This document shows, piece after piece, positions 1 through 51,607 of a stretch of 55,693 nt of DNA. Under the pieces are notes generated by a model that worked only from the letters and a program-made list of their open reading frames with translations, did not search any database and was not told where the DNA came from. The DNA lies in the IMG/VR virus record IMGVR_UViG_3300030109_001698, positions 1 to 55,693 of that record. One strand, written 5' to 3'. Numbering within the stretch: position 1 is the stretch's first letter; each line of letters begins with the position of its first letter. The translations under genes and the position numbers were made by a program. This DNA is from a virus. Lineage: Duplodnaviria > Caudoviricetes.

Positions 1-10
1 TATTTTATTA

Positions 11-41
11 TATTATCCAACACTAATCGTATTTAATTTGT
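11..41 (-). promoter_or_regulatory. Early promoter-like motif copy 1 (its gene lies left of the window)
   Basis: + strand TATTATCCA-acactaa-TCGT-atttaat-TTGT; same spacing as 7 other copies. Confidence 0.75.
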
Positions 42-56
42 GATGCGTGTATAGCA

Positions 57-197
57 CTATTTATCATACCACACTCCGTATACTTTACAACCGTGATGTG
101 TGGTACAAAACAGTTTTCTTTTTATTTCTTTAGGTTTATTTACCTGGCTTTTGTCCCAGTATTTAGGATTCTTACTGTTTAGTTTTTTCTTTTTCAT
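57..197 (-). CDS. Small basic hypothetical protein (46 aa, MKKKKLNSKNPKYWDK...GVWYDK)
   Basis: Translated by hand, below ORF-track cutoff; fits the packed minus-strand gene run. Confidence 0.6.
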   Translation of the reverse strand: MKKKKLNSKNPKYWDKSQVNKPKEIKRKLFCTTHHGCKVYGVWYDK

Positions 198-312
198 TGT
201 ATTTCTTTATATTATTATTAAATATATTTCTTCTTATACTACATTTTATTTGTGAGGTAACATACATTCCTATTACAATACCTACACCTAATACTATTAT
301 TAATTCTATCAT
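172..312 (-). CDS. Small single-TM protein (46 aa, MIELIIVLGVGIVIGMYVTSQ...)
   Basis: Translated by hand; hydrophobic N-terminus; ATG just after the upstream stop. Confidence 0.6.
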   Translation of the reverse strand: MIELIIVLGVGIVIGMYVTSQIKCSIRRNIFNNNIKKYNEKEKTKQ

Positions 313-313
313 A

Positions 314-925
314 TTATTTTACTTTATATCTATGTCCATCTATTATTATTTCTACTGAACTTGGTGGTTCTTCTGTCCATTTATTCCAATAAGCATGTTG
401 CTCATGTACAAATACATCACCGTTTTCTAAGTTTTCTATCTGACCACCTGAGTATTTGAAATTAACCATATCTTCAGTATCTTGACACCTAAGGAAATTA
501 CCTAGTTTTGCTTCATGAACCCATTTAGGTACAAACTTACCATCTTCTATCATATTCGCTTGTTTAATATAATAGTTTTTGAGACAATAGTCTATTAAGT
601 ATTGTAATCTTTTTCTAGTACTATTTAACTTTATACGTTTTTTACTTTCAAATTTATTGTATTTACCTGTCCACTCTTGTTTCATTGTTCCTGTTATCCA
701 CTTGTAATCTTTATAATACTCTACATGTTGTTCGCATTTATTTAGTTGATACGCAGTATGTCCACCATTCATTCTTCTTACATAACCTGACTCAAACGAA
801 CCAACCTCTATGTATTCACCATATTGTTTAATTGGTAGTCTATATATTCTCGTACCATTACTTATTTGTTTATCAGTTGTAATATCCTTCCAACCTAATA
901 AATCTATTTGTTCTTTTAGTGTCAT
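314..925 (-). CDS. Hypothetical early protein (~203 aa)
   Basis: Track ORF 314..958; ATG at 925 (MTLKEQ) preferred because the upstream ORF stops at 927. Confidence 0.75.
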   Translation of the reverse strand: MTLKEQIDLLGWKDITTDKQISNGTRIYRLPIKQYGEYIEVGSFESGYVRRMNGGHTAYQLNKCEQHVEYYKDYKWITGTMKQEWTGKYNKFESKKRIKLNSTRKRLQYLIDYCLKNYYIKQANMIEDGKFVPKWVHEAKLGNFLRCQDTEDMVNFKYSGGQIENLENGDVFVHEQHAYWNKWTEEPPSSVEIIIDGHRYKVK

Positions 926-926
926 A

Positions 927-1097
927 TTATTTCTTTTCATTAACTTCTTGAATATCAATTAGTTGTGTCATGTAGTCACCATTATCTATCAACTCTATTT
1001 GTAAGTTTATAATCGCTTGTTTTTCGGTTACACCTTCTATTTCTACCATAGTTTTCATACTTATACAGTCTCTGTATACAATTTCATAATTTTTCAT
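927..1097 (-). CDS. Hypothetical protein (56 aa, MKNYEIVYRDCISMK...EVNEKK)
   Basis: Translated by hand; A-rich leader, fills the gap between neighbours. Confidence 0.65.
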   Translation of the reverse strand: MKNYEIVYRDCISMKTMVEIEGVTEKQAIINLQIELIDNGDYMTQLIDIQEVNEKK

Positions 1098-1115
1098 AGT
1101 TTTATTTTTTATTAA

Positions 1116-1358
1116 TTAGTTATTATCTTCATTTAAAAACCTATCACCGAACATATCTTCCCAGTCCATATCTGTTAGACACATATTAGTCCATGTAAAG
1201 AAGTCTCGTAATGTTTCTACAGTTAATTCACCCCAAAACTTATTATCTTGTAGTTTTTTTCTAATGTTTTGTGGGCCGTGTGTATAGCAACCTGAGTCTA
1301 TATACTCTTGTACTATAATTTTATACTCTGGTTTGAGTCTGTTCCATAAGTTATCCAT
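1116..1358 (-). CDS. Hypothetical early protein (80 aa)
   Basis: ORF track; directly downstream of the motif at 1381. Confidence 0.75.
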   Translation of the reverse strand: MDNLWNRLKPEYKIIVQEYIDSGCYTHGPQNIRKKLQDNKFWGELTVETLRDFFTWTNMCLTDMDWEDMFGDRFLNEDNN

Positions 1359-1380
1359 ATTATTATATTTTATTTGTTTA

Positions 1381-1411
1381 TATTATCCATTAGTAATCGT
1401 ATTCAATCCGT
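1381..1411 (-). promoter_or_regulatory. Early promoter-like motif copy 2
   Basis: TATTATCCA-ttagtaa-TCGT-attcaat-CCGT; overlaps the 3' end of ORF 1390..1683. Confidence 0.8.
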
Positions 1412-1683
1412 AATAGATCACGGTTCTCTTCAGACATAACTTCTAAATTATAAATGTAGTTTTCGTAATGACTAGAATCTACTCTTTCACTCCAAATATC
1501 TTCATTCATCCATTCTATTATGTCTTCACAAGTATTTATATTTTCTCTAATTACATTTTCAATCTTATAGTTTTGTAGTACGTTATTTAATTCTTTATCA
1601 GTTTGAACAAAGAACATACATATTACCCCGATAGTAAAACCAAATATACCACCTATTATTGTTGTTTGTGTTTCTATTTTCAT
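1390..1683 (-). CDS. Membrane-anchored hypothetical protein (97 aa)
   Basis: N-terminal TM (IIGGIFGFTIGVICMFFV), acidic helical tail. Confidence 0.75.
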   Translation of the reverse strand: MKIETQTTIIGGIFGFTIGVICMFFVQTDKELNNVLQNYKIENVIRENINTCEDIIEWMNEDIWSERVDSSHYENYIYNLEVMSEENRDLLRIEYDY

Positions 1684-1694
1684 ATTTTTTTTAT

Positions 1695-1913
1695 TTAGTC
1701 AATTTCATCACAGTTTTCACACTCATCTTTATAATATTCATTAATTAAACTATCTCTTTCGTACATATAATCTATCCATAGTTTATCTAGTTTATAGTTT
1801 ATTTTAACTTGTTTCTGTGTTACTTGAGTAGTTCCACAACTCATCATCATTAGTCCTAAAACTAAAGATATCCACGTTATTATAAATATATTTCTACTTT
1901 TTCTTTCACTCAT
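1695..1913 (-). CDS. Putative lipoprotein (72 aa)
   Basis: Basic N-terminus, hydrophobic stretch, lipobox-like MMS-C-GTT. Confidence 0.65.
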   Translation of the reverse strand: MSERKSRNIFIITWISLVLGLMMMSCGTTQVTQKQVKINYKLDKLWIDYMYERDSLINEYYKDECENCDEID

Positions 1914-1917
1914 AATT

Positions 1918-1998
1918 TTATTGTTTTCTATTTAATATTATACTTATCATTACTACAAAATATACTAATAGTAATATTCCTTTTATATATACTTCCAT
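1918..1998 (-). CDS. Possible 26-aa hydrophobic peptide (MEVYIKGILLLVYFVVMISIILNRKQ)
   Basis: Translated by hand; TAATG coupling to the upstream stop, fills the gap. Confidence 0.45.
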   Translation of the reverse strand: MEVYIKGILLLVYFVVMISIILNRKQ

Positions 1999-2249
1999 TA
2001 ATCTAGTCCGTCTCTATTACCTCTTAGTATACCACTCTTCTTGTCGTGTTGGTGGAGGTCGTGTATAGCACTCGAAAGAGGACTTATCTCACGTTTAACT
2101 TCGTTATCCCATATTTCTTGGGCCTCTTTATTTACTACTGGTGGAAGTAAATAATAACCTAAGTGATGTTCTTGACCGAAACTATCTATCACATGGACAT
2201 TATAGTGTGTATTACCTTCGTACTTATCTATTATTATTCTTCTACTCAT
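1998..2249 (-). CDS. Hypothetical early protein
   Basis: Track ORF 1998..2273 starts at GTG; ATG at 2249 (MSRRII) has an A-rich leader. Confidence 0.7.
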   Translation of the reverse strand: MSRRIIIDKYEGNTHYNVHVIDSFGQEHHLGYYLLPPVVNKEAQEIWDNEVKREISPLSSAIHDLHQHDKKSGILRGNRDGLD

Positions 2250-2295
2250 TTTCTTATTTGTTTTATAATCCACTTTTCGTTATAACTTTTCTTTT

Positions 2296-2553
2296 TCATA
2301 ATTTTTCTACTTTTTCACCGTTAACAATTAGTTCGTACTCACCATATTCTTTACGAGTCTTTACATACTCTAACGGAAACTCTTGGTGAGTCTTAAATGA
2401 AGAATATCCATTTGGTCCTTCACTTAGTATTTCTACATCACCATAACCTACCCAGTAAGGATTGTGGTTCATCTCTACTATTATTTGTTTTTTTTCTTTT
2501 ACGTTACTATAGTCTTGTTGTAAGAACATAGTTTTTAATTCTTGTCTAGTCAT
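2296..2553 (-). CDS. Hypothetical early protein (85 aa)
   Basis: ORF track, operon packing. Confidence 0.75.
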   Translation of the reverse strand: MTRQELKTMFLQQDYSNVKEKKQIIVEMNHNPYWVGYGDVEILSEGPNGYSSFKTHQEFPLEYVKTRKEYGEYELIVNGEKVEKL

Positions 2554-2555
2554 AG

Positions 2556-2702
2556 TTATATATCTTTATCTGTTAATAAATCTTTTATTTCGTCTTGTGC
2601 ACTTTCCAACCATTTATCTATACAATCAGTGTATGGATCGAAGTCTGGTAAGTATTTAATTAATAATCTTTTTAATTCTTTAAGTTCAGTTAGTTTGTTC
2701 AT
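2556..2702 (-). CDS. Hypothetical protein (48 aa, MNKLTELKELKRLL...DKDI)
   Basis: Translated by hand; ATG about 15 nt downstream of the motif at 2718. Confidence 0.65.
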   Translation of the reverse strand: MNKLTELKELKRLLIKYLPDFDPYTDCIDKWLESAQDEIKDLLTDKDI

Positions 2703-2717
2703 AATTTTATTTTATTA

Positions 2718-2748
2718 TATTATCCAATAGTGTTTGTATTCAGTCCGT
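2718..2748 (-). promoter_or_regulatory. Early promoter-like motif copy 3
   Basis: TATTATCCA-atagtgt-TTGT-attcagt-CCGT. Confidence 0.8.
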
Positions 2749-2755
2749 AAAAGTG

Positions 2756-2798
2756 TGACAAAAGGGTGTTACTCTATTTCCTTAACACCCTAATGTCA
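2756..2798. other. Intergenic inverted repeat (stem-loop)
   Basis: TGACA-aa-AGGGTGTTA ... TAACACCCT-aa-TGTCA, 3' of ORF 2811..3062. Confidence 0.65.
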
Positions 2799-2810
2799 TA
2801 CTCCAACTAA

Positions 2811-3062
2811 CTAAACTAGTTCCTTACCTCTTAGTATCATTGGTATATTATTGGTCGCGGTGTAAGACTTATACTTTTCCCAACATGGTAGAGTAGTCAA
2901 AGTTTCTTTCATTATATCGAATACTTTATCGTGGTTATAAGTTATTTCTTTACCTTTTTTCGTTACGAAAGTTATAATTTGGTTTTTACCGATTAATGAC
3001 TTTCTTACTACAAATCTTTTAGATTTTAATACATTTACTGTGTTTTTTTCTTTGTTTTTCAT
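2811..3062 (-). CDS. Basic early protein, paralog of 4139..4363
   Basis: Shares KRFVxRKSLIG, TKKGKExTYNHDxV, KYKSYTxTNNIP. Confidence 0.85.
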   Translation of the reverse strand: MKNKEKNTVNVLKSKRFVVRKSLIGKNQIITFVTKKGKEITYNHDKVFDIMKETLTTLPCWEKYKSYTATNNIPMILRGKELV

Positions 3063-3107
3063 AATTTTTTTAGTTTAGTTTAGTTTATATTTATTTTATT
3101 ACATTTA

Positions 3108-3138
3108 TATTATCCAATACTTTTCGTTTTTGTTCCGT
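3108..3138 (-). promoter_or_regulatory. Early promoter-like motif copy 4
   Basis: TATTATCCA-atacttt-TCGT-ttttgtt-CCGT. Confidence 0.8.
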
Positions 3139-3188
3139 AAAAGTATATTATTTGTTTAGTTGATATTTTTAGTTAGTAGGTATTAGTC

Positions 3189-3434
3189 TTACCTTGATTG
3201 TGTATGACTAAAACTTTTATGGAATACTAGTCTATCTTTGAAATTATTATAATCAAAATACTTATTATTATTATAGTGTTCGTCGAGACTTATATAACAG
3301 TAACCTTTTATATTTAAGTGTTCAGTATAATACTTATCAAACCATTTTGGTAATTGGTGTAATTGGTATGGTAAATAAATTTTATTATTTAATTTAATAA
3401 TTTGAAGAGAGGAGAATTTAATTTTATTATTCAT
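3189..3434 (-). CDS. Hypothetical early protein (81 aa)
   Basis: ORF track; directly downstream of the motif at 3448. Confidence 0.7.
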   Translation of the reverse strand: MNNKIKFSSLQIIKLNNKIYLPYQLHQLPKWFDKYYTEHLNIKGYCYISLDEHYNNNKYFDYNNFKDRLVFHKSFSHTQSR

Positions 3435-3447
3435 AACTTTTTTATAT

Positions 3448-3478
3448 TATTATCCAAACCACTTCGTCGCTCCTCCGT
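3448..3478 (-). promoter_or_regulatory. Early promoter-like motif copy 5
   Basis: TATTATCCA-aaccact-TCGT-cgctcct-CCGT. Confidence 0.8.
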
Positions 3479-3562
3479 GTCTCGGTGCTATACACCACAC
3501 ACCTTCGGTGTTCAGTCGGTGTGCCTCGCTTGTATGGACAATGAAGTTCCAATCGTTTATTA

Positions 3563-3593
3563 TATTATCCAAAGAGTGTCGTCGCTCCTCCGT
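3563..3593 (-). promoter_or_regulatory. Early promoter-like motif copy 6 (no ORF directly downstream)
   Basis: TATTATCCA-aagagtg-TCGT-cgctcct-CCGT; 17 bp identical to copy 5. Confidence 0.8.
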
Positions 3594-3620
3594 GTTGCTA
3601 TACACTTCGTGCTATACACG

Positions 3621-3636
3621 AGTGCCTTTCGGCACT
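3621..3636 (-). other. GAAA-tetraloop hairpin 3' of ORF 3644..3799
   Basis: Minus strand AGTGCC-GAAA-GGCACT; no U-tract. Confidence 0.55.
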
Positions 3637-3643
3637 TCATGTT

Positions 3644-3799
3644 TTACAGTAACTCAACTGACATGTTTAATGAATCCCACAAGTCTCCATACTCAGACTC
3701 ATAGATATTATCAAGAGTATACACTGTGTTGTTGATAGTCATTTCATAGATGTCATTATCTTCATCTAGTTTTATTGTAATTATAGGTTTTAGTTTCAT
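3644..3799 (-). CDS. Small acidic protein (51 aa, MKLKPIITIKLDEDNDIYEM...VELL)
   Basis: Translated by hand; A-rich leader. Confidence 0.65.
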   Translation of the reverse strand: MKLKPIITIKLDEDNDIYEMTINNTVYTLDNIYESEYGDLWDSLNMSVELL

Positions 3800-3824
3800 A
3801 GTTTTAATTTTATTTAGTTAGTTA

Positions 3825-4055
3825 TTATATATTAATAATTAGATATGATAATTCTACATCTTTAGATATATGATGAGAGAATGGTATTTTATTATTTAAT
3901 AATTCTATCATAATTTCTTTTATATTACTAGTATATTCGAACACTACTATAGAATCGTCATCATGGTGTGGATGTAGTTCTCTTTCTACTTCACAGTCGA
4001 TTAGATAGTGGTATTCAGAGTCTGATAGTTTTGGTAAATTAATTAGTTTAGTCAT
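3825..4055 (-). CDS. Hypothetical early protein (76 aa)
   Basis: ORF track; downstream of the motif at 4091. Confidence 0.75.
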   Translation of the reverse strand: MTKLINLPKLSDSEYHYLIDCEVERELHPHHDDDSIVVFEYTSNIKEIMIELLNNKIPFSHHISKDVELSYLIINI

Positions 4056-4090
4056 AGTTTTATTTATTTAGTTAGTTATTTATTTATATA

Positions 4091-4121
4091 TATTATCCAA
4101 TTATATTAGTATTCTCTCTGT
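4091..4121 (-). promoter_or_regulatory. Early promoter-like motif copy 7 (degenerate)
   Basis: TATTATCCA-attatat-TAGT-attctct-CTGT. Confidence 0.7.
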
Positions 4122-4138
4122 ATTCCAAACACTCTGTA

Positions 4139-4363
4139 TTATCTACAGAATGTTGGAATGTTATTTGTATTTGTGTATGACTTATACTTCTTGAAACAGT
4201 TCATAGATTCAAATCTATCTTTATTTCTTTCATACACTTCATCATGGTTGTAAGTAACTTCTTTACCTTTCTTAGTAGTGAATGTGATGATTGTGTTTGT
4301 ACCAATTAGAGATTTTCTGATTACAAATCTTTTAGTAATAATTTTGTTTAGTTTAGTTTTCAT
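4139..4363 (-). CDS. Basic early protein, paralog of 2811..3062; first gene of the minus arm
   Basis: Aligns by eye to 2811..3062. Confidence 0.85.
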   Translation of the reverse strand: MKTKLNKIITKRFVIRKSLIGTNTIITFTTKKGKEVTYNHDEVYERNKDRFESMNCFKKYKSYTNTNNIPTFCR

Positions 4364-4401
4364 AATTTATTTATTTATTTAATTAATATTCTATTCATAT
4401 A

Positions 4402-4432
4402 TATTATCCATCATCAGTCGTCACTGCTCCGT
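4402..4432 (-). promoter_or_regulatory. Early promoter-like motif copy 8
   Basis: TATTATCCA-tcatcag-TCGT-cactgct-CCGT. Confidence 0.8.
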
Positions 4433-13853: not shown

Positions 13854-14073
13854 TGAATTAATCAAAGTAGCAAAAGAACCAATTGTAGATTCAGACGACG
13901 ATATATCAGCAGATAGACTTAAAAATGCCGCAGCTACTAAAAAATTAGCTATATTTGACGCATTTGAAATACTTAACAGAATACAAGAAGAAGAAAACTT
14001 ACTCGAGGGCAAAACACCTAAAGAGGCAGAGAAAACGGTCTTTAAAGGATTCGCAGAAGGTAGATCTAAGTAA
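13798..14073 (+). CDS. Putative terminase small subunit
   Basis: Helical 91-aa protein coupled to the large terminase; positional inference. Confidence 0.5.
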   Translation: MNIKETKKNIIQAGQKAVDELIKVAKEPIVDSDDDISADRLKNAAATKKLAIFDAFEILNRIQEEENLLEGKTPKEAEKTVFKGFAEGRSK

Positions 14074-34509: not shown

Positions 34510-37500
34510 ATGGCAGACGATATTAGACCTATAACATTACAAGAGGAAGAAAACAAAAAAATAAACATAAAAAAACAGATTCAAAATATAAGAAATCAGT
34601 ACGAGGAAATATATGGTAATATTTTAGGAGAAAAACAAGTAGATGTTACAACAACTATGAACCAAGATTTAGAATCTGCTTTTAAACCTTTTGTAGACTC
34701 TGATAAATACAGTCAAAAAGAGTTAAAAATTATAAAAGATCATCTTTTAAATACATTAAAAAACGAAAGAACTAGTAGAGGTATGGGTGAAGAAGCCTAT
34801 TCACCACAGCTACTAAAACAACCTTCAATGATTAAGTTTGGTAAATTTATAAAAAGGGAGGTTCCTAAATGGTTTACAGAAGAACACAAACAAAAATATG
34901 GTCAATTTAAATTTTTAGAATTTAATAAAAACTCTTTTACTAACTACTCTTTTGGTAGCAGCGTTGTTCCTTCTAACTCGACAAGTCCAATAAGTTATTA
35001 TGACGACGAGATTTTTGAAACATATGAAACAAGTGACTACAAAGACGAGCTTGAAAAAAGAAAAGAAAATAAATATAGTAGTGATTTAGATTACTTAAGA
35101 GTTTATAACGACGAAACTTTTGGTTTAGATACTGACAACGAGTATGTAGAGATAGATGGTATTAGACGATCTTTAGGTGAAAACGGTGATTTTAAATATG
35201 AAATATATAACATACAAGAAAACGTAGACGAAAATAACAATCCTATTATTGGAGAAAACTTAGAGTTAGCTAGTGAAGAACAAATAGAAAGTTTTGAAGA
35301 TAAATACTACGAGTACGAATATAACGCTGTAAAAAACAGTATTATTAACGACCCTTTATTGACAGCTAGTTCAGATACAGAAATAGACACGTACGTATCT
35401 AGCTCTATTGATCAAGTTAAAGAACAAGAGTTAAATGAAAAAGTAAACAAAGAGGTTGAGAGGGTTATTGAAAATAGTAATATTGTTGAGGCTTTAGAAA
35501 CACCAGAGGATATTGATAAAGTAAGAGATGTTTTAAAAAAAGCATTTTCAAATGTTCACGGAACTAAATCAGATAGAATTAGACTAAGAAAACCACTTGA
35601 AATTCCAAACTCTGTTTTAAAACAGCTTGAAGAAAAAGGAATTAACGTTAATATTTACAAAAAAGGAGAAAATGTAGATTTTTCTATAATATTCAACTTA
35701 GATTCTAGTATGTCTAAAGAAGCTGTATATAGAAACCCTACGGAGGAAGACTTTACGATAACAGACTACATGGAGACAAAGGGCATGTTAAAAGCTGAGC
35801 AGTACGAGAAAGAAATAAAAGAGTTAATGAAAGATGTTCAATTAAAGTTTGACAAAGATACACAAAAAATTAGAAATAAAACAAACAAAGTAGCTCAAAC
35901 CTGGTGGCAACATAAAGCCTTAAACGATTATAGTGAGTTTCTTGGCGACGCTGAAGACGGAGATGGTTTTTTTGTAATAGAAGATCAAAGTAAAGAGAAT
36001 ATAGACAGAATTATAAGCGAATATAAAAAGGCTGGTATTAAACTTAAAATTTATGATAGTGATTTTGGAAAAGGAATTGACTATAAAGATGCTGCCGCTT
36101 ATTATTCTTCAAGAGCGAATTACTACTATGAAAACGACGAGGATTATAAAAAATTATTAGCAGTAGCAGAGTCAACTCAAGAAGAATTAATGAAAAATTA
36201 TTCTTTGAAATTTAAACCAGAATATAAATATCTTGATTCAAATATTACAGATTTTATTAATGAAAAATTAAAAAGCTCTGGTTTTCACAACGCCAATACT
36301 TATGACAAGGCTATGATAACAGACAATATATGGTTAGGTTTAAAAGAATATATAATGTTATCAAACCCAGTTGAAAAAGGAGATCTTGAAGGTCTAAGTA
36401 AGCGTCGAGATATGATATTCAAGCTTCGAGATGAATTTTATTTTTCAATGTTTCACAATCACTTGGCTTTTCGTAAAGATTACACTCAAAAAGCAACCCA
36501 AGAAGATGTTGACGCTGGGGTAGCAACAGAGGTTGGTGGTCCTGTTTATGCTTGGAGTGTTTTTGCATTAAAAGATTTTGCGCGCGATTTAGTGTCGCCA
36601 GAACAAATAAATCTTAGCGATATGATAAATAAAGCTAGTGGAAAAGATAAAAAAAGATTAGAGTTGTTAAGAAGTTTTGCTGAAGAGGTTATAAATGCTG
36701 ATGAAGACATTTTGTTTAAAAAAGACGGTGGTTTTGAATCGTTTATGAAAGGTTTTACAAGTAACAAGTGGTATGAGTATCTTCCGTACGCAGGTTCTAT
36801 TGTGGGTATAAACGATTCTAGGTATATAAAAAACTCTGCAGAAAGAATAAGAGCAGTAGAAAGAAGAGATGCTCTAAACTTTAAAAAATCAAGAGGTATT
36901 AAATTAAGTAGTAACGAAAAAGAAGAGTTAAAACAATTAAATAAGTTGGGTCCTGTTACAGCATCAGATCAACTTATGATGGACATGTACACCTTGAAAA
37001 ACATGATGGATGGTATATTTAGTGAGAGTAGCACCGCTTATAGCGCTGGTAAAATAACAGCTGATATGTTACCTTATCTACCGGAATTTGCTTTATCAAG
37101 CCCTGCTTTTACCTGGGGTAAAGGCGCTAGTTTACATTATGGTAAACAAGTTTTAAATGCATCTGTTAAAGGTGGACTTTTAAATCCAGGCGCATCAATG
37201 TTTGGAGTCAACGCGTTAGCGTTTTCTGTTAAAACTAAAAACACTTTGTCTTGGTTATTAGGAACTGGTGCTCAAACAGCAGTTAATCCACAAATGTATA
37301 TAAAGTATACTATTGAAAACATGACACCCGAAATGCAGTTTGCTTTTTCGGAACAGGCTAATGATATATACAATGCGCTAGATGGTACAACAAGTGTTGA
37401 TAATTTAGAAGAAGGAGAAGTTTACACAGCTAATAACGGTAAAAAATCAAAGTTTAGCGCTAAATGGACTGGCCAAAATCCAGACGGTTTTTTTATAGCT

Positions 37501-37959
37501 TTTGCAAGAGCATACGGTGTTAGTTGGGCAGAAATGGCAACAGAAAGAATTGGTAGTTATTTACCTGGCGCTTTTAAATATATGACAAACGACCAGTTGG
37601 CAGGGTCGAAAACCTTTATGCAAGCAGTTGTATTAAAACAGTTTATGGGTACAAAAAAATATACTAATTGGTTAACAACAAAGAATTTAAAAGCTAATAA
37701 AAAATCTTTATTAAGATATATAACCGAAAACTCTCTAGGTTGGAACGGTTTGCTTTCTGAAATAGCTGAAGAAACTATTAACCAACCTTTGTCTAGTTTA
37801 ATAATGGGTAGACCAATGAACGAGGCTTTTATTGACAACGAAGGTAATTTTGATCCGCAGTTTTTTAAAGAAATGGGAATAGCGATGACAGTTACGTCTT
37901 TAACTTTTGGCGCTGGTAACTATGTTCAAATTAGACGTAAATTAAATAAAAAGAAATAA
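34510..37959 (+). CDS. Large putative ejection protein (1149 aa)
   Basis: Charged helical body; C-terminal Gly/Ala hydrophobic helices with EMATE and EIAEETI motifs. Confidence 0.7.
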   Translation: MADDIRPITLQEEENKKINIKKQIQNIRNQYEEIYGNILGEKQVDVTTTMNQDLESAFKPFVDSDKYSQKELKIIKDHLLNTLKNERTSRGMGEEAYSPQLLKQPSMIKFGKFIKREVPKWFTEEHKQKYGQFKFLEFNKNSFTNYSFGSSVVPSNSTSPISYYDDEIFETYETSDYKDELEKRKENKYSSDLDYLRVYNDETFGLDTDNEYVEIDGIRRSLGENGDFKYEIYNIQENVDENNNPIIGENLELASEEQIESFEDKYYEYEYNAVKNSIINDPLLTASSDTEIDTYVSSSIDQVKEQELNEKVNKEVERVIENSNIVEALETPEDIDKVRDVLKKAFSNVHGTKSDRIRLRKPLEIPNSVLKQLEEKGINVNIYKKGENVDFSIIFNLDSSMSKEAVYRNPTEEDFTITDYMETKGMLKAEQYEKEIKELMKDVQLKFDKDTQKIRNKTNKVAQTWWQHKALNDYSEFLGDAEDGDGFFVIEDQSKENIDRIISEYKKAGIKLKIYDSDFGKGIDYKDAAAYYSSRANYYYENDEDYKKLLAVAESTQEELMKNYSLKFKPEYKYLDSNITDFINEKLKSSGFHNANTYDKAMITDNIWLGLKEYIMLSNPVEKGDLEGLSKRRDMIFKLRDEFYFSMFHNHLAFRKDYTQKATQEDVDAGVATEVGGPVYAWSVFALKDFARDLVSPEQINLSDMINKASGKDKKRLELLRSFAEEVINADEDILFKKDGGFESFMKGFTSNKWYEYLPYAGSIVGINDSRYIKNSAERIRAVERRDALNFKKSRGIKLSSNEKEELKQLNKLGPVTASDQLMMDMYTLKNMMDGIFSESSTAYSAGKITADMLPYLPEFALSSPAFTWGKGASLHYGKQVLNASVKGGLLNPGASMFGVNALAFSVKTKNTLSWLLGTGAQTAVNPQMYIKYTIENMTPEMQFAFSEQANDIYNALDGTTSVDNLEEGEVYTANNGKKSKFSAKWTGQNPDGFFIAFARAYGVSWAEMATERIGSYLPGAFKYMTNDQLAGSKTFMQAVVLKQFMGTKKYTNWLTTKNLKANKKSLLRYITENSLGWNGLLSEIAEETINQPLSSLIMGRPMNEAFIDNEGNFDPQFFKEMGIAMTVTSLTFGAGNYVQIRRKLNKKK

Positions 37960-37960
37960 T

Positions 37961-40900
37961 ATGGCTAAAGGCGCTCCTTATAGAATAAAAATAAAAAATA
38001 AACCTACTAGAGTTTTTCAATCCGAACAGGAAATGAAAGACGCTTTAAGAAACGATCCTGAATTAAGAGACCAGCTTAAAAACAACGAGTATACAATCGA
38101 GACGGATAAGGACGGCCAGTATGTAGTTCCAGAATCATCTAAAATGGTGATGTATGAGACTATAATAATGTTAGAGGATAAAAAAAAGAAAAAGAAAAAA
38201 GAAAAAGAGGTAGAAATTAAGCCAGAAGAAACAAAAGTAGAGGTTAAGCCAGAAGAAACAACTACAGAAGAAGTAACTACCGATCCTGATCAAGCTTACG
38301 AAGAAGCTTACCCAGAAGAAAAAACAGTTATAAAAACAGATCCAGAAAGCGGTGCACAAGAAGTTGTTTTAACAGAAAAAAATAAAGAGCAAGAAAAAGA
38401 AGACTTTACTGATTTTATGCAAATAGGTAAAGAAACAGATCCTGTAACTCAAGCTATGCCAAAGTTTGGTTTATTTGGTAAGCAAATTGACCAAGAAAGA
38501 GTTTACAACTATTGGGAAAACAAGTTGCAGGACATGACAATAAAAAACGAGGAAGAAGTTCTTGATAGAGCTATAGCTGAAGAAATGGAGTTAGTTATGG
38601 AGATGGATAGTAAACTAGCGGAAACTGTAGAGAGTTATGAAGATAAAATAAAAAAACTTACAGATGAAAAAGAAGGACTTGAAGACGAAAAGAAACAAAT
38701 AAAAATTCAGAAACAAATAGATAAACTACAAACTAAAAAGAACGAAGTTTTAGAACCTGTTAGAAAAAAAATAAAAGATAAAAAACAAGTAGATATTTTT
38801 AATGAAAGACTTGCTAGAGTAGAAGAAATATCGAAACAAATATTTGGTGAGCAGTTTGAGTTTGATATCGCGGAGACTGGTGAAGAGTACGTAGAAAAGT
38901 TTGAATTAGATTTAATAAGACAAGTTGAGGAGTTAGATGTTTTGATAAACGAAACTACTGATCCAAAAAAGAAAAATGAGTTATACGAACAAAGAAGAGC
39001 TATTCAAAACGAGTTAAATGAACTTGAAGGTTATTTTCTTAACGAAAAAGGAGAATCAAAATTTAACGAAGCAAAAAGAGAAAACAAATTAAAACAGTTA
39101 AAAGAAAAAACACATGGCAACATGAGTATTGATGGTATGAAAGCTGTTATTAATGTCGCAGCTTCGTTATCAGAAGGAGGAAATATAAACGTTGCTGCTC
39201 ATGAGTTTTTACACAAGTTACTTTTGAATACCATTAGAAATAATGATAATATAAGAATTGTATTAGGATCAAATTTACATAAATATATAGCTAAAATCGA
39301 TCCTAACTTGGTTCAAAATAGTGATTTTAGAAGACGTTTAGTTTCTTACGGTAACAATATAGAACTTATAAATGAATTAGTAGGACGGTTAAACGAAGCT
39401 AGACAAGAGGGAAATACAGAATTAGCTAAAAAGCTAGAAAAACAAAGAGTAAAATTAGAAAGTAGCTTTGAAAACGGTTCTCAAGCTGAAGAAGTTTTAA
39501 CGTTGTTTTCAGACGCTATATACTATAACGAAGTAACATTTAATGAAAATCTTTATACTAAACTAGGTGATATGTTTAGGCGTATATTTAGATCTTTTGG
39601 TGTTACCGCTAAATGGGCTAACCCTAGAGACGTTTATAATTTTATAAGAGATTACAACAATACTATTGAAACGGGTAGAGGTGTTGCTGCTTTAATAAAA
39701 GAAGGTAGAGAGGGTGTGACATTAAAAGGTGATATAAAACAACAAATAGATATAGAATCTGGAGACGCGCCTAAAAAACGTAGACGTAAAAAAAGGTTTA
39801 CAATATTTCAATCTAAATCAGACGCAGAATCCGTAAACAATATATATCAAGAAAAAGGTAAAGATGGTGCTTTTGATATTGCAGAGGAGTACCGTGGTAT
39901 GGCAAACAAAATATATGATAGATATGTTTCGCAACTACCTAGAGATTTACAAGCTTGGATTAAGCAGCAAGATAATTTTAGAGAAGACTTAATTAACGGT
40001 ATATTATTTGCTAGTTATAAGTTTATTAACGAAGGAAACGCTAACAGAAGTGTTGTTGGTATGGTTCAAAATGAATTTGTTGAAGCTAGACAGACTTATG
40101 GTAATTTAGCCGCTTATATAAATAAGTTTATATCATTAAGAGCAATACAAGAGTTTAAAGATAATCTACCACAAGAAGCTAAACTACCTGAACCAACTGA
40201 GCCAACTGAAACAAAGCCTGAGGAGCAAGTAAGAAAAGGTAAAATAGCACTAAAAGAATTAAAACAAGAAGAAACACAAGAAGATGTAAAAAATATTGTT
40301 CGTACAAGCGGTGTAAAACTTCCTGCGGAACCAAGTTATAAAGATGTTAAAAATTTAATAACTAGTCACGATGGGGCTAAAAAATCAAAACGTATTCCTA
40401 CTGGTGAGTTGTTTCCAGTTTTAGAAAAAATATGTGAAGATTTATTTGGTGACGCTAGTATAGCCCTAAGATTAGTTAGAGAAGTAGATCTTACTAAAAG
40501 CCAAAGAGCTGCAATTCAAGATTATATACGTAGAAAACATATAGAGCTTATTACCTATGTAATACCTGAAGGTACTTCAAAAGAAGGTAAGGCTACTGGC
40601 GCGGCAAACACTAAGTTAGGTGTACTTTATACAGAAGGCGCTAGAACAAAAACAGGGCCAGGATTAAAAGAGCAAAAGAAACTACATATAGATCCAGCGT
40701 TTTTGTTAGAGCAAGCTGGTATGGTTAAGGGACAACCTACTATAACTACCACTAAAGTTGATCCGTTTTTAAGATCAATGGCTATTCAAATAGGTGTTAT
40801 AGCCTCTAATCAAGCTATAAGACAAGAAAAAGAATATCTTAATCTTACGGAGCTACAAGTTATTAGACTAAAAGATGGTAAGCCTAAATTAGCTTATTCT

Positions 40901-43900
40901 CAAGCAGCTAATGAAAATGTTTCTTGGATAAAACAACAGTTAGACAAAGGAGACTTTGATTCTATTAACAAAATAAATAAATTATTAGGTAATAAAAAAC
41001 TTATTTTAGACCCATCAAATCCAAATCATATAACGCAAATGGAGTATTTTGCAACTGATGTGTTAGCAAAATATTTACCTTGGGAGTTTGTAAACGCTGC
41101 TAGTTTTGGTGTTGGAACAAAAAGAAATACTGGTCAGTTTTTTACAGCTGAAGGAGGTGCTGAAGCAGGTACTAGAATAAAGCTTCAAAATAAAGTTAAA
41201 AAATACCAATCAAAAAATCCTTTAAATCTTACGGAAAAACAGATAAGATCTGTAAGGTTAGCTATTAGATCAAAAAGAGGTTATGGCAAGGGTGGTTGGT
41301 ATGATATGCACACTATAAAAACTGTAAGAGGTGAAGTTAAAAATAGAAGTTTTACTTCAGACTATTATCAAGAGGTAATAAAAGATCATAACGAGGGCGT
41401 TGAAATTATTTTAAACGCATTACAAGATATAATCAACATAGACAACGGTAAATATCTACCTGAAATAGCGGCTATGTTTAAAAGCCAAGCGTATGCGACT
41501 GATCATTTTATAAGACAAATGGCAATACCTAAAGGTAGAGAACAAGGAATAGGAGTTAACAATACTTATAGTGAACACTTTTTTCCATCTGGCAAAATGA
41601 GTGAATTAATACTTAGGGCTTTAATTAATAATCAAATTAATGATTTAATACCTTTTATGCAAGATAGTTATTACCAAATTGGTTTAACTTCTGTTACAAA
41701 TAAGAAAATTGACAATCTTTACAAAGAAGGTTTCCCTAAAGAATATTATGATGTTATTAATGAAAAACTTAAAGAAGGGTTTAGTAATTTACCAGATCCA
41801 ATAATTAGATACGCTCATTCTAATATTAATTTAAATAAAATAACGTTAAATAATAATAACACATTAACTCAAAACTATGGTTTAGCTTACGCAGAAACTA
41901 ATAGTTCTTTTGAACTTGTAGCCGTTGTAAATACTTTACTTCAAGAGTTTTCTTTAGGACAAATATCACAAGAAAAAGCTATAAATGTTTTACAGTCAAC
42001 GTTAAAAATATCTTATTCAAAAAATAGTAACAAAGAAAAGATATTGGATCTAGCTATTCAAAACGCAAGAGCTAATTATAATAATCCTAAAGGTATGAGT
42101 ACTTTTGATTTTGACGAAACGTTGATTGATAAAGGGGACAATTTTATTATAGCTACAAAAGACAATAAAACTATTAAAATAAGTAGTGGGCAATGGCCTG
42201 TTCAAGGTCCTGAATTAGCTAAGCAAGGTTATAAGTTTGATTTTTCAGACTTTATTAACGTTAGAGGTGGTATTGAGGGTCCTTTGTTAGAAAAAATGAG
42301 AAACCAAATAAAGAAGTTTGGAACTCAAAATGTTTTTGTACTAACAGCTAGACCATCTCAATCAGCGCCAGCAATACACGAGTGGTTAAAAACAAGAGGT
42401 ATTAATATACCTTATAAAAACATAACTGGATTAGGTAACAGTACTGGCGAAGCAAAGGCAGAGTGGATGCTTGAAAAGTTTGCAGAGGGGTATAATGATA
42501 TGTATTTTGTTGATGATGCTTTGTCAAATGTAAAAGCTGTTAAGAACGTGTTAGAACAGCTAGATATTAAATCTAAAGTTGTACAAGTAAAAATAAACTA
42601 TAGTAAAGAAGCTAGTAAAAGATTAAATGAAATAATAGAACAAAGTACAGGTGTTGATGGTAAGAAAATATTTTCTGAGGCGCAAGCTAAACTAAGGGGT
42701 GATAAATTTAAAGTTAGAGACATAGTACCTCCTTCAGCACAGGACTTTCTTGGTTTACTATATAATATGTTACCTAAGGGCAAACAAGGTGAGGAAGCAA
42801 TGGAGTACTTTAAGAAAACATTAATAGATCCGTTTGCTAGAGGCGTAAACGAATTAAACACGGCTAAGCAAAGAGCTGCTACAGAGTTTGCTGCTTTGCT
42901 TAAGACTTTTCCAGATGTTAAATCTGATTTAAAAAGAAAATTGAAAAATTTTGATGGTGTACCTAAACATATTGGTAATTATAAAATTGATCACGCTGTT
43001 AGAGTTTATTTATGGAACAAAGCTGGTTATGAAGTGCCAGGTTTATCAAAAAGAGATTTAAATGAATTAGTTGACTTTGTAAAGCAAGATGAAGAGCTTA
43101 GAGCTTTTGCTAATGCGGTTGGTAATATATCTAAAAACGAAAAAGGATATGCTGAGCCAGGTGAGTATTGGTTAGTAGAAAACATACAAGCTGACTTGCT
43201 TAGTGATGGAGCCATCGGAGAGGTTAGAGGAAAGTATCTTACTGAATGGCAAAATAATGTTGATTTAATGTTTACGCCGGAAAACATGCGTAAGTTAAAA
43301 GCTATATACGGCAGTAAGTATGTAGAAGCCTTACAAGATATACTTTACCGTATGAAAACAGGTAGAAACAGACCTAGCGGTACTAATAGATTATCAAACA
43401 TATATATGAACTGGGTAAATAATTCTGTTGGCGCTATCATGTTCTTTAACATACGTTCAGCTGTGTTACAAACTATATCTTCTGTCAACTACATTAATTG
43501 GACGGATAACAACCCGTTAAAAGCTGGACTTGCTTTAGCTAATCAAAAACAATTTTGGAAAGATTTTGTATACATATTTAATTCTGATATGTTAAAACAA
43601 AGAAGAGCTGGTAATAGAAGAGGTGTTAATGAGTCTGAATTGCTAAACGCTGTTATAGGTAGTAACAACCCAATTAAAGCTTCTATAGCTTGGTTATTAA
43701 ATAAAGGTTTTTTACCTACGCAAATTGCGGATAGTTTTGCTATTGCATCTGGTGGGGCTACTTTTTATAGAAATAGAGTTAACACTTATTTAAAGCAAGG
43801 CATGTCTCAACAGGAAGCAGAGCAAAAAGCTTGGTTAGATTTTCAAGAGGTTACAGAGGTGTCACAGCAATCAGCAAGACCTGATTTAATATCGCAGCAA

Positions 43901-45097
43901 CAAGCTAATCCATTGGGTAGATTAATATTAGCCTTTGCAAACACACCTATGCAATATGGCCGTATAATGAATAAAGCATTTAGAGATATTATAAATCGTA
44001 GAGGCGATACTAAAACACATGTTTCTAAAATAGTTTACTATGGTGTAGTACAAAGTGTAATTTTTACAAGTTTACAATCAGCTATATTTGCAGCCTTAGG
44101 AGAGGGAGACGAAGAGTTGCTCGACAAAAAGAAAGATAGAATGTTTAATGGTATTATAGATTCTTGGTTAACAACGTTTGGCTATGGTGGTAAAGCTATT
44201 AGCGCGTTAAAAAATACCTTGATGGAATATAAAAAGCAAGACCTGAAAGATACTGATGACGATTATTTCTCACGATCTGATCATGCTTATACCATACTAC
44301 AAGCGTTAAGTTTTTCTCCTCCTATTGGGGCAAAACTTCGTAAAATATATCAATCTACACAAACAAGAATATTTAATAGAGATATTATTAAAGAAAGAGG
44401 ATTTACTTTAGACAATCCAGTATGGGGAGCTGTTGGTCACGTTATAGAAGGTGTAACTAATATACCGCTTGGTAGATTATCTAATAAAATGTTAAACTTA
44501 GACAATGCTTTAGATACAAGAAACGAAAGTTGGAAAAGAATAGCTTTAATAATGGGTTGGAACACTTGGGACTTAGGCATAAAAGATCCTGATTTACAAG
44601 CTTTAGGAGAAGATATAAAAGAAAGAAAGAAGCAAGAAAAGAAAATGCAAAATGAAAAAGAAAAAGCTGAAAAACAAAGGGAGAAGTTAAGAGAAAAATA
44701 TCCTGACAAAACAGATGAGCAAATTGATGAAACTGTAACTACTGAAAAGAAAATAAAACAAATTTTTGATTTAAACAAAAGAGAACAAGTAAAAATAATA
44801 GAAGGTTTAAACTTAAATCCAAAAGATTATCCTAAGGAACAGGATAGAGTAGATATAATAATGGAAAGTTACAATGAAGATTCTAAAAAAATAGATTCTA
44901 CTTTAACAGCTATAGAAAACTACGTGCCATCAGAATCAGAACAAAGATCTATAGATTTATTTAAAATGAACAAAAAAGATCAAATAAATATGTTAATGCA
45001 ACTAGGTTTAAATAGTAAAGCTATAAAAAAACTTAAGTATGAAGAGGATAGAGTAAATAAAATATTACAATTAGAAGAAAAAGAAAAAAGTAAATAA
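37961..45097 (+). CDS. Giant multidomain (polyvalent) virion protein: zincin, sigma-region-2-like, HAD phosphatase, C-terminal helical domain
   Basis: HEFLH (res 414) with EEVL; EDLING...LAAYINKFISLRA; FDFDETL, LTAR, K, FVDD. Confidence 0.8.
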   Translation: MAKGAPYRIKIKNKPTRVFQSEQEMKDALRNDPELRDQLKNNEYTIETDKDGQYVVPESSKMVMYETIIMLEDKKKKKKKEKEVEIKPEETKVEVKPEETTTEEVTTDPDQAYEEAYPEEKTVIKTDPESGAQEVVLTEKNKEQEKEDFTDFMQIGKETDPVTQAMPKFGLFGKQIDQERVYNYWENKLQDMTIKNEEEVLDRAIAEEMELVMEMDSKLAETVESYEDKIKKLTDEKEGLEDEKKQIKIQKQIDKLQTKKNEVLEPVRKKIKDKKQVDIFNERLARVEEISKQIFGEQFEFDIAETGEEYVEKFELDLIRQVEELDVLINETTDPKKKNELYEQRRAIQNELNELEGYFLNEKGESKFNEAKRENKLKQLKEKTHGNMSIDGMKAVINVAASLSEGGNINVAAHEFLHKLLLNTIRNNDNIRIVLGSNLHKYIAKIDPNLVQNSDFRRRLVSYGNNIELINELVGRLNEARQEGNTELAKKLEKQRVKLESSFENGSQAEEVLTLFSDAIYYNEVTFNENLYTKLGDMFRRIFRSFGVTAKWANPRDVYNFIRDYNNTIETGRGVAALIKEGREGVTLKGDIKQQIDIESGDAPKKRRRKKRFTIFQSKSDAESVNNIYQEKGKDGAFDIAEEYRGMANKIYDRYVSQLPRDLQAWIKQQDNFREDLINGILFASYKFINEGNANRSVVGMVQNEFVEARQTYGNLAAYINKFISLRAIQEFKDNLPQEAKLPEPTEPTETKPEEQVRKGKIALKELKQEETQEDVKNIVRTSGVKLPAEPSYKDVKNLITSHDGAKKSKRIPTGELFPVLEKICEDLFGDASIALRLVREVDLTKSQRAAIQDYIRRKHIELITYVIPEGTSKEGKATGAANTKLGVLYTEGARTKTGPGLKEQKKLHIDPAFLLEQAGMVKGQPTITTTKVDPFLRSMAIQIGVIASNQAIRQEKEYLNLTELQVIRLKDGKPKLAYSQAANENVSWIKQQLDKGDFDSINKINKLLGNKKLILDPSNPNHITQMEYFATDVLAKYLPWEFVNAASFGVGTKRNTGQFFTAEGGAEAGTRIKLQNKVKKYQSKNPLNLTEKQIRSVRLAIRSKRGYGKGGWYDMHTIKTVRGEVKNRSFTSDYYQEVIKDHNEGVEIILNALQDIINIDNGKYLPEIAAMFKSQAYATDHFIRQMAIPKGREQGIGVNNTYSEHFFPSGKMSELILRALINNQINDLIPFMQDSYYQIGLTSVTNKKIDNLYKEGFPKEYYDVINEKLKEGFSNLPDPIIRYAHSNINLNKITLNNNNTLTQNYGLAYAETNSSFELVAVVNTLLQEFSLGQISQEKAINVLQSTLKISYSKNSNKEKILDLAIQNARANYNNPKGMSTFDFDETLIDKGDNFIIATKDNKTIKISSGQWPVQGPELAKQGYKFDFSDFINVRGGIEGPLLEKMRNQIKKFGTQNVFVLTARPSQSAPAIHEWLKTRGINIPYKNITGLGNSTGEAKAEWMLEKFAEGYNDMYFVDDALSNVKAVKNVLEQLDIKSKVVQVKINYSKEASKRLNEIIEQSTGVDGKKIFSEAQAKLRGDKFKVRDIVPPSAQDFLGLLYNMLPKGKQGEEAMEYFKKTLIDPFARGVNELNTAKQRAATEFAALLKTFPDVKSDLKRKLKNFDGVPKHIGNYKIDHAVRVYLWNKAGYEVPGLSKRDLNELVDFVKQDEELRAFANAVGNISKNEKGYAEPGEYWLVENIQADLLSDGAIGEVRGKYLTEWQNNVDLMFTPENMRKLKAIYGSKYVEALQDILYRMKTGRNRPSGTNRLSNIYMNWVNNSVGAIMFFNIRSAVLQTISSVNYINWTDNNPLKAGLALANQKQFWKDFVYIFNSDMLKQRRAGNRRGVNESELLNAVIGSNNPIKASIAWLLNKGFLPTQIADSFAIASGGATFYRNRVNTYLKQGMSQQEAEQKAWLDFQEVTEVSQQSARPDLISQQQANPLGRLILAFANTPMQYGRIMNKAFRDIINRRGDTKTHVSKIVYYGVVQSVIFTSLQSAIFAALGEGDEELLDKKKDRMFNGIIDSWLTTFGYGGKAISALKNTLMEYKKQDLKDTDDDYFSRSDHAYTILQALSFSPPIGAKLRKIYQSTQTRIFNRDIIKERGFTLDNPVWGAVGHVIEGVTNIPLGRLSNKMLNLDNALDTRNESWKRIALIMGWNTWDLGIKDPDLQALGEDIKERKKQEKKMQNEKEKAEKQREKLREKYPDKTDEQIDETVTTEKKIKQIFDLNKREQVKIIEGLNLNPKDYPKEQDRVDIIMESYNEDSKKIDSTLTAIENYVPSESEQRSIDLFKMNKKDQINMLMQLGLNSKAIKKLKYEEDRVNKILQLEEKEKSK

Positions 45098-49642: not shown

Positions 49643-50164
49643 GTGTTTCAAGATTTTAATATAAAACCGTACTTAAATAAAAAACCGCCTAATGATAATT
49701 CTATAACTACAAAAGGTGAAATAAAAGAATTAGTTAATATACCTATTAAAGAAAATTTTATAAAAGAAAAAGATGATATTAAAAAATCTTTTAGTAAAAT
49801 TGTACCAGAAGATAAATTAATACAAAAACTTATTGATGAGTCCGCTCCTGTTATAATTAAAATTAAAAAACATCACAATAGGCCTAGACCTAAAGTGATA
49901 GCTAAAAAACTAAAGACAAAAATGCAAGACATGGAAATGGCCTCAATGAAAACACCGTCATATCCATCTGGTCATTCAACGCAAGGTTATTTAATAGGTA
50001 TGGTGTTAAGTGATAAATATCCACAAAAGAGAGATAAACTAATGAAAAACGCTAGAGATATATCTTATAGTAGAAGAGTAGCACATGCTCACTATAAATC
50101 AGATTCTTTGTTTGGCGAAAGAATAGGTAGAGATATGTATCAGCATATAAAAAATAAAACATAA
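49643..50164 (+). CDS. PAP2 / vanadium-haloperoxidase-superfamily phosphatase
   Basis: KKHHNRPRP, PSYPSGHS, SRRVAHAHYKSD; GTG start. Confidence 0.88.
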   Translation: MFQDFNIKPYLNKKPPNDNSITTKGEIKELVNIPIKENFIKEKDDIKKSFSKIVPEDKLIQKLIDESAPVIIKIKKHHNRPRPKVIAKKLKTKMQDMEMASMKTPSYPSGHSTQGYLIGMVLSDKYPQKRDKLMKNARDISYSRRVAHAHYKSDSLFGERIGRDMYQHIKNKT

Positions 50165-51101: not shown

Positions 51102-51112
51102 AATTAAAATTT

Positions 51113-51607
51113 ATGAAAAATATAAGTAAACATATTAGCTGGCATGAAGGAACCTACAGCAGAACAGGAGATAGAAGAGGTTTAGATAACACTCCTAATG
51201 AAGAACAAATTAAGTGCATGAAAGAAGTTGCTGAAAATTTGTTTGAACCATTGAGAGAGTGGGTAGGTGGACCTATAAAAATAAATAGCTTTTTTAGAGG
51301 TGAACCAGTTAACACCGCTATAGGTGGTAGTAAATACTCTCAACATATGAAAGGCCAGGCTATAGATATGGATGATACTTTTGGACACAAGACGAACGCA
51401 GAGATGTATCATTATATAAAAGATAATTTAGATTTTGATCAAATGGTTTGGGAATTTGGTACTGAATATCCTAATGGTAACCCTAACTGGGTTCATATTA
51501 GCTGGGTATCAGATAGACCAAATAGAAAACAAGAAGTTATTGCTATTAAAAAAAATGGCAGAACTAAATATATAAAAGATATTGAAGAGTACTTAAAAAA
51601 TAAATAA
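51113..51607 (+). CDS. Peptidase M15 family endolysin
   Basis: INSFFR, N..IGG, SQHMKGQAID, WVHIS; ATG at 51113 preferred to the track start at 51068. Confidence 0.88.
   Translation: MKNISKHISWHEGTYSRTGDRRGLDNTPNEEQIKCMKEVAENLFEPLREWVGGPIKINSFFRGEPVNTAIGGSKYSQHMKGQAIDMDDTFGHKTNAEMYHYIKDNLDFDQMVWEFGTEYPNGNPNWVHISWVSDRPNRKQEVIAIKKNGRTKYIKDIEEYLKNK

Follow-up and report, generated by a model that had tools for sequence, protein, structure and literature searches.

A domain predicted to resemble sigma factor region 2 within a giant, probably virion-borne protein of a marine crAss-like phage

The DNA analyzed here is the IMG/VR virus record IMGVR_UViG_3300030109_001698, the 55,693 bases of which form the entire window and have an estimated completeness of about 94%. 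Its source is a marine crAss-like, Elemovirus-like podophage. A 2378-amino-acid (aa) multidomain protein encoded in this window, called here the giant protein, contains a small domain, region A, for which a fold resembling the core-binding portion of a bacterial sigma factor is predicted. The models make it likely that region A is a sigma-2-like module for docking on RNA polymerase, which suggests that the phage supplies a means of its own for engaging the host enzyme, and a role of region A as an injected sigma factor is plausible. The reading that we prefer, with somewhat less than even confidence, is that region A is a diverged sigma factor consisting of region 2 only, which belongs to an ejected polyvalent protein, docks on the host core RNA polymerase and helps to start early transcription. 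The likeness of fold, the canonical docking, the domain family and the gene context presented below were all established in silico.

The preliminary description of this DNA had placed a sigma-factor-like segment at 39818-40900, and its coordinates and quoted strings proved correct. The segment corresponds to aa 620-980 of the open reading frame (ORF) 37961..45097, in which IAEEYRGMANKIYDRY starts at aa 640, FREDLINGILF at aa 673 and VVGMVQNEF at aa 698, while GNLAAYINKFISLRAIQEF spans aa 714-732, and the four strings together cover nucleotides 39878-40156. The likeness to sigma70 region 2 that these strings had been taken to show was recovered, and was specific, in the predicted structure, but at the level of sequence statistics it did not rise above chance.

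The structure of aa 596-1000 (405 aa) was predicted by AlphaFold2 without templates from 29 sequences, with a mean predicted local distance difference test (pLDDT) score of 74.6. The model showed a helical domain in its residues 26-140, followed by a second domain with pLDDT above 90. In the helical domain, which corresponds to region A, the pLDDT was 72-80 over model residues 30-90, and the last conserved helix was formed by model residues 121-140. The helices expected for sigma regions 1.2-2.4 are present in the predicted model in the same order, and the sequence in the window has an insertion of about 30 aa relative to short-form relatives. When region A was compared by VIA with 48,161 chains, the top 15 consisted of 13 named sigma entries and two chains of phage transcription complexes, and at least 24 named sigma entries were found among the 50 rows listed. 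Similarly, the reanalysis of the 423 chains matched by Foldseek placed sigma factors in all top 14 positions. The matches cover nearly whole sigma-2 domains with the helix order retained. A language-model search of the ESM Atlas, which uses no structure, placed five of 30 region A hits in a viral Sigma-70 region 2 set (score 0.95), in which 41% of members carry PF04542 and 93% are viral.

To describe how region A could contact RNA polymerase, it was co-folded with a 165-aa clamp-helix fragment of beta-prime from Flavobacteriaceae genomes (16 sequences, 95% mean column identity). Three runs gave interface scores (ipSAE) of 0.83, 0.81 and 0.83, shared at least 70% of contacts, and had a partner pLDDT of at least 79. 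Replacing the partner of beta-prime gave 0.00 and 0.00, and replacing beta-prime gave 0.52; of 80 solved complexes and 110 mismatched pairs, 58 and 2, respectively, reach the mark used for this assay. On the beta-prime side, the predicted interface is formed by fragment residues 71-112, which are the clamp coiled coil and which we take to include the equivalents of R275, E295 and A302 in E. coli numbering, while on the phage side it is formed by aa 638, 669-703 and 735. The helix FREDLINGILF (aa 673-683), which had been paired in the preliminary description with the EDLIQEG motif of sigma70, is the one that lies on the beta-prime clamp helices in the co-fold. The proposed modeling with these helices hence returned a canonical predicted docking, with 0.83 against 0.52 for the best control. 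Because sigma-2/beta-prime complexes have already been solved, this result concerns likeness and not binding; a second, independent model treats region A as a sigma-2 domain.

Relatives of the giant protein are encoded on at least 532 viral contigs, from which 80 loci were kept, with 77 giant ORFs among them. The strongest conservation in region A is found in its last helix, AAYxN..L..R, which in a register set by eye stands at the position of the DNA-reading regions 2.3-2.4. Among 31 sequences A718 is conserved in 28, Y719 in 27 (with F in 3), N721 in 30 and R727 in 24 (with K in 7). An exhaustive profile search with region A returned 364 cluster representatives at E≤0.001. Small free-standing relatives were also found, comprising seven proteins of 108-240 aa, none of which has a Pfam label; some of them may be fragments, as at least two are located on short contigs (515 and 1500 bp).

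Several results weigh against reading region A as a sigma factor, and they can be considered together with the alternative explanations. There was no sequence-level sigma signal at all. A Pfam search of the whole giant protein at E≤1 found no sigma family, Sigma70_r2 matched none of 20 aligned region A sequences at the Pfam family cut-off, the family profile of 20 sequences found no PDB chain at E≤10, and PF04542 matched nothing in the genome at E≤10, with a control that matched 11 of 14 genomes. Region A profiles of 31, 13 and 185 sequences, the last from the exhaustive search, were compared by hhalign with 30 sigma region-2 windows from three Bacteroidota genomes, which gave P of 0.12 and 0.2, and 0.083 with the 185-sequence profile. 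The best 150 of the 364 cluster representatives were all giant proteins or fragments, with no canonical sigma factor, and in the register set by eye K-F would take the place of the tryptophan pair found in sigma-70 region 2.3. As to structure, model residues 98-117 had pLDDT below 50, and the comparison by Foldseek, which the preliminary description had proposed for residues ~619-980, gave no PDB match at E≤0.001 with the 405-aa model, sigma E being ranked 50th with an E value of 3.4; its sigma signal appeared in the reanalysis of the matched chains. The co-folding pass may also only repeat the likeness of fold, given that complexes of this type are already known.

These data could mean that the likeness is generic, so that region A would be a helical spacer or packing domain of a cargo protein, and its sigma-like matches would arise from a widespread four-helix arrangement together with the models' memory of abundant sigma structures. 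Such an origin is consistent with the lack of significance in Foldseek, the only moderate pLDDT, the score of 0.52 that region A reached with an unrelated protein, and the variability of region A, which is often absent in relatives. On the other hand, a generic domain would not easily explain why sigma factors, with two chains of phage transcription complexes, occupy the top 15 of 48,161 chains and sigma factors the top 14 of 423, with nearly whole sigma-2 domains covered in the same helix order, while the neighboring region B yields no such list. The structure-free method reached Sigma70_r2 clusters too, the docking is predicted to use canonical faces on both sides, and the best local hhalign alignment, although below significance, runs colinearly through 74 columns and keeps the register of the preliminary description. 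We consider the generic origin somewhat unlikely. A different alternative, nearly as good as the preferred reading and in our estimate somewhat unlikely, is that region A binds the clamp helices without reading promoters. As a decoy it would block the binding of host sigma and shut off host transcription at entry, while as a tether it would hold the host polymerase at the ejection complex, where transcription would help to pull the genome in, as in T7. The evidence from fold and docking is identical for both explanations. VIA and Foldseek searches of region B found no sigma region 4 after region 2, and no other DNA-reading partner was found; moreover, the protein in which the module sits carries, in its conserved C-terminal part, a hydrophobic helix of the ejection-protein type. 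Region A was detected by hidden Markov model (HMM) searches in 19 of the 77 giant ORFs, and in 24 with an iterated profile, so that it is not universal in the infection mechanism of the family; its dispensability in the other 53 relatives fits an accessory role in take-over better than the sole route to early transcription. Similarly, gp18 of Elemovirus (Flavobacterium phage vB_FspP_elemo), a protein of 3694 aa, has no HMM match to region A, nor to region B, the HAD segment or the C-terminal part described below, and the host itself is placed in Flavobacteriia through relatives of the phage. However, the best conserved residues of region A are located in the helix of regions 2.3-2.4 and not on the predicted beta-prime face, which speaks against a decoy or tether, and a conserved single-element motif precedes the leftward genes. 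T4 gp55, a sigma-2-only protein, is able to read a promoter.

A further alternative is that region A serves a polymerase of the phage. The claim of the preliminary description that no RNA polymerase motif is visible in the window agrees with our searches of this nearly complete record: DFDxD was absent from all frames of at least 150 aa, and PF00623 gave no match, although its control matched 14 of 14 genomes. The search with PF00940 was uninformative, as its control matched in no genome. When the giant protein was compared with PDB sequences using phmmer, only two chance rows with E 0.9 were obtained, and the large proteins of the record showed no similarity to virion polymerases in PDB or in phage records. 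A very divergent polymerase in the record is possible, and region A could then be the specificity subunit of a cryptic phage enzyme located in one of the large proteins without assignment (34510-37959, 46327-48525 and 53617-55080), the record being about 94% complete. In line with this, the non-virion polymerase holoenzyme of AR9 contributes one chain to the top VIA rows, and the AR9 and phiKZ non-virion polymerases have sigma-like subunits. Besides the negative searches for catalytic motifs and families, this explanation is opposed by the small size of the genome (55.7 kb), by the annotated cultured relatives, which list no polymerase, and by the co-folding with host beta-prime, which passes. 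We regard it as very unlikely.

The segment between the flanking motifs had been described as about 360 aa long and sigma-sized, which was not confirmed: only aa ~620-740 are sigma-like, while aa 755-985 form a separate domain, region B. The segment is probably not a whole sigma factor. Region B folded alone with a pLDDT of 87.3 and a predicted template modeling score (pTM) of 0.86. In this domain G876, T879, G880 and G973 are invariant, and a Ser at its end is nearly invariant. Comparisons with PDB by VIA and Foldseek revealed neither likeness to sigma regions 3 and 4 nor any other fold match, and the search of BFVD returned only a family member. The ESM Atlas gave scores of at most 0.85 with weak tyrosine-recombinase-type names, which were not relied on. 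The modeled domain may be a new fold.

The possible targets of region A are located at the left end of the window, where the 11-mer TGGATAATATA recurs in seven exact copies. With up to one mismatch 12 matches were found, compared with 3.1 expected, and none of 100 shuffles reached 12. The exact 11-mer was also found on the contig of the closest relative, where three copies lie together at one end, but on none of four other contigs, which are fragments that are 61-82% complete. The 11-mer resembles an extended -10 element rather than the -7/-33 type of Bacteroidota, and the recurrence of such a non-Bacteroidota-looking element at the left-end gene cluster agrees with the earlier proposal of non-host early promoters. 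The TGGATAATATA sites are thus candidate early promoters. Four copies of the 11-mer extend into the 3′ ends of small ORFs that are paralogous, because of which the conservation of the 11-mer may be not purely regulatory, and this also counts against promoter reading by region A. A metatranscriptome run contained 7% of the sampled words of positions 1-5000, in contigs only, which allows no inference on starts or strands. It was also observed that the motif copies near 3441, 3556 and 4395 share an additional conserved stretch on the right-hand side, which is TCGTCGCTCCTCCGTGT-like. Where the leftward and rightward blocks of genes meet, in a region that otherwise has 30% G+C, two stretches, 3460-3640 and 4410-4720, are G+C-rich and apparently structured, and they may be small RNAs or an origin.

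From the data on region A and its context we infer packaging, ejection, cleavage, binding and promoter reading in the following way. The giant polyvalent protein would travel inside the particle and be ejected into the cell either before the DNA or together with it, and it may be cut into its domains by its own HExxH peptidase or at the recurring hydrophobic-Ser-Lys/Arg borders. The sigma-2-like module would bind the beta-prime clamp helices of the RNA polymerase of the host, presumably one of Flavobacteriia, and direct or tether this polymerase to the incoming DNA, most likely at the single-element TGGATAATATA sites, and early genes would be read before any phage protein is made. In the broadest form of this proposal, which we find doubtful, the phage particle, instead of carrying a polymerase or no transcription protein at all, contains a minimal sigma in an ejected polyprotein, which captures the host core at DNA entry, guides it to phage promoters of a single element and is an interchangeable cassette. 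The patchy distribution of the module (24 of 77) is the reason to view it as such a cassette and not as a universal mechanism.

As a putative sigma region-2 domain without region 4, region A is similar to the minimal sigma factor gp55 of T4. The latter is a free 185-aa late sigma, which is made during infection and works with gp33 and the sliding clamp, while region A forms part of a 2378-aa virion-module protein and its action would precede phage gene expression. It also differs from region 2 of extracytoplasmic function (group 4) sigma factors (PF04542) in having no Pfam, HMM or hhalign signal and no region 4 found, and in its fusion into a giant protein. The virion RNA polymerases (N4 vRNAP, phi14:2 gp66, and crAss001 gp47/49/50) are likewise giant, packed in the virion and ejected to start early transcription. 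These enzymes carry a catalytic polymerase (DFDxD or T7-like), which was not found in this record, and the transcription-related part here would instead serve the host enzyme as a module for specificity or docking. The giant protein did not resemble a two-barrel virion polymerase, as it has no DFDxD and no similarity to phi14:2 gp66 (6VR4). In phi14:2, the virion polymerase transcribes the early genes and the host polymerase the later ones. In crassviruses, the virion polymerase genes follow the tail or muzzle genes, and in crAss001 the products encoded beyond the muzzle gene are ejected cargo, with polymerase-associated proteins among them. The giant gene is located downstream of a homolog of the muzzle protein, like the cargo genes of crAss001, and it was therefore assigned to the virion/cargo module.

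The giant protein, which is probably a virion cargo or polyvalent protein, also shares features with the polyvalent proteins of phages and conjugative elements (Iyer et al. 2017, PMC5512222). It is a multidomain giant that combines enzymatic modules with an HExxH motif of the peptidase type, and it presumably enters the cell along with the DNA. According to that study, zincin peptidases process such proteins, which jump-start transcription, and every N4-like polymerase is a fusion with zincin peptidase domains. The word sigma is absent from its main text. The literature was also searched for sigma factors that are packed in virions, ejected or injected, for virion polymerases of crAss-like phages and for polyvalent proteins, and the listings and passages covered report no sigma-type domain in a virion or ejected protein. 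The delivery of a sigma-type module inside the particle would, if true, be new. Phage-encoded sigma factors and virion-packed polymerases are each textbook knowledge. If the preferred reading is true, it would explain how podophages of this group, in which no polymerase of their own is seen, could read non-host-type early promoters without new protein synthesis, and it would be a third way for a phage to start early transcription. The repertoire of injected polyvalent proteins would also gain a domain for capturing transcription, in the form of an interchangeable cassette in a large family of cargo proteins of marine Flavobacteriia phages. At least 364 sequence clusters would then contain a sigma-2 domain diverged beyond sequence recognition, which would inform on the minimal requirements for core binding.

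The remaining parts of the giant protein were defined by comparison of its relatives. A protein search found 11 full-length homologs, and at least five conserved segments were recognized in the family. The HAD-type segment and the C-terminal ~670 aa were both detected by HMM in all 77 giant ORFs, the HExxH segment in 68 and region B in 25, while the stretch between the HExxH and HAD segments is variable. In the HExxH segment H414, E415, H418 and E511 do not vary in either set of sequences compared (12 of 12 and 25 of 25). Hence, an HExxH motif with a downstream Glu occurs in a multidomain phage protein, as in polyvalent proteins with zincin domains, which is a likeness at the level of the motif. 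The zincin label rests on this motif, because the segment had no Pfam match and nothing significant in a profile search of PDB sequences; judging from the sequence, a peptidase located upstream of region A in the same protein could process the polyprotein. The HAD label rests in the same way on motifs, since Pfam gave no match and the profile search of PDB sequences gave nothing significant. All four HAD motifs, I-IV (DxDxT; T/S; K; DD), were found, with D1383, D1385, T1387, T1462, K1499 and D1519 invariant and D1518 nearly invariant. This segment also has a weak match to polynucleotide kinase phrog_415 (E 0.0039). Pfam detected no named polyvalent-protein domain in the giant protein. The conserved C-terminal part contains one strongly hydrophobic helix, aa 2028-2046 (44042-44098), with a hydropathy peak of 1.56, and in aa 1930-2069 there is a match to gp74 of Tenacibaculum phage Gundel_1, which is annotated as "structural protein". 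Partial relatives of the giant protein are also labeled "structural protein" in phage records. Another segment, aa 1000-1370 (40961-42080), is conserved in 18 of 77 relatives and has no family assigned; in it E1205 is invariant, and H1206 and R1185 are nearly invariant.

At the borders of these domains a hydrophobic-Ser-[KQRE] motif recurs, which has a background of 22% of windows. It was found at the start of region A in 18 of 24 sequences, at the end of region B in 17 of 25, before the HAD segment in 45 of 77 and after it in 54 of 77. The hydrophobic-Ser-Lys/Arg border motif is present in 58-75% of family members. These motifs are probably the "flanking motifs" of the preliminary description, and the sites are candidate processing sites. 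The positions of all features are given in Table 1.

Table 1. Features of the window discussed in the text (positions in the 55,693-base record)
Feature	Position	Strand	Remarks
TGGATAATATA 11-mer, seven exact copies	9, 1379, 2716, 3106, 3561, 4089, 4400 (span 9..4410)	-	ahead of small leftward genes
GroEL gene	8285-9853		
GroES-like gene	13263-13853		
Large terminase gene	14073-16289		
Portal gene	16291-18690		
Homolog of crassvirus muzzle protein, 2118 aa	24681..31037	+	PF25729 E 4e-11; phrog_14478 E 5.9e-145
Giant multidomain ORF P0001, 2378 aa	37961..45097	+	
Zincin-like region	39143..39640	+	HEFLH motif at 39200-39214 (aa 414-418)
Region A, putative sigma region-2-like helical domain	39818..40180	+	aa ~620-740
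Predicted contact surface for beta-prime clamp helices	39965..40069	+	aa 669-703, with FREDLINGILF
Most conserved helix of region A, LAAYINKF..R	40106..40165	+	aa 716-735, at position of sigma regions 2.3-2.4
Region B, confident alpha/beta domain	40223..40915	+	aa 755-985
HAD-type phosphatase signature	42083..42640	+	aa 1375-1560; FDFDET at aa 1382
Conserved C-terminal part	42638..44650	+	aa 1560-2230; present in 77/77
Hydrophobic-Ser-Lys/Arg motif (e.g. MFSK, VKFSK)	39800-39830, 40890-40915, 42060-42090, 42590-42620		same places in relatives

Further virion proteins are annotated in the record besides the terminase and the portal. Between the gene of the muzzle homolog and the giant ORF there are several genes of no assigned family and, next to the giant ORF, the gene of a 1149-aa protein. 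This neighbor had no match in PDB or in phage records, and a sub-threshold Pfam match to LPD14. A search with the terminase led to 87 phage records, and all cultured phages among them infect Flavobacteriia (Flavobacterium 68, Cellulophaga 15, Tenacibaculum 2, and Maribacter 1). A megablast search of phage records with 20 kb gave no match. The best annotated relatives are Elemovirus podophages of about 60 kb, which have the same gene order as the record and share with it GroEL, GroES, the terminase (46% identity), the portal, a large tail protein and a giant gene. At the position equivalent to the giant ORF they encode the 3694-aa gp18, annotated as "structural protein", in which an HExxH motif is found in a context similar to that of the giant protein. 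In elemoF_6-3D, gp18 (L150:719-11803) is syntenic, and it has no detectable similarity to segments of the giant protein beyond HExxH.

Several minor observations concern other genes of the record. Relatives of its GroEL (49-78% identity) are located on contigs binned into taxonomically unrelated marine metagenome-assembled genomes, which suggests that these are mis-binned phage contigs. The ORF 46327-48525 contains about seven tandem Cys-containing repeats of 78 nucleotides (26 aa) at 47137-48143, and this repeat part is ~50% identical to a virion structural protein of Synechococcus phage S-CAM3. A PAP2-family phosphatase (49643-50164, E 2.4e-8) and a Peptidase_M15 (51068-51607, E 5.1e-12) are encoded downstream of the giant gene.

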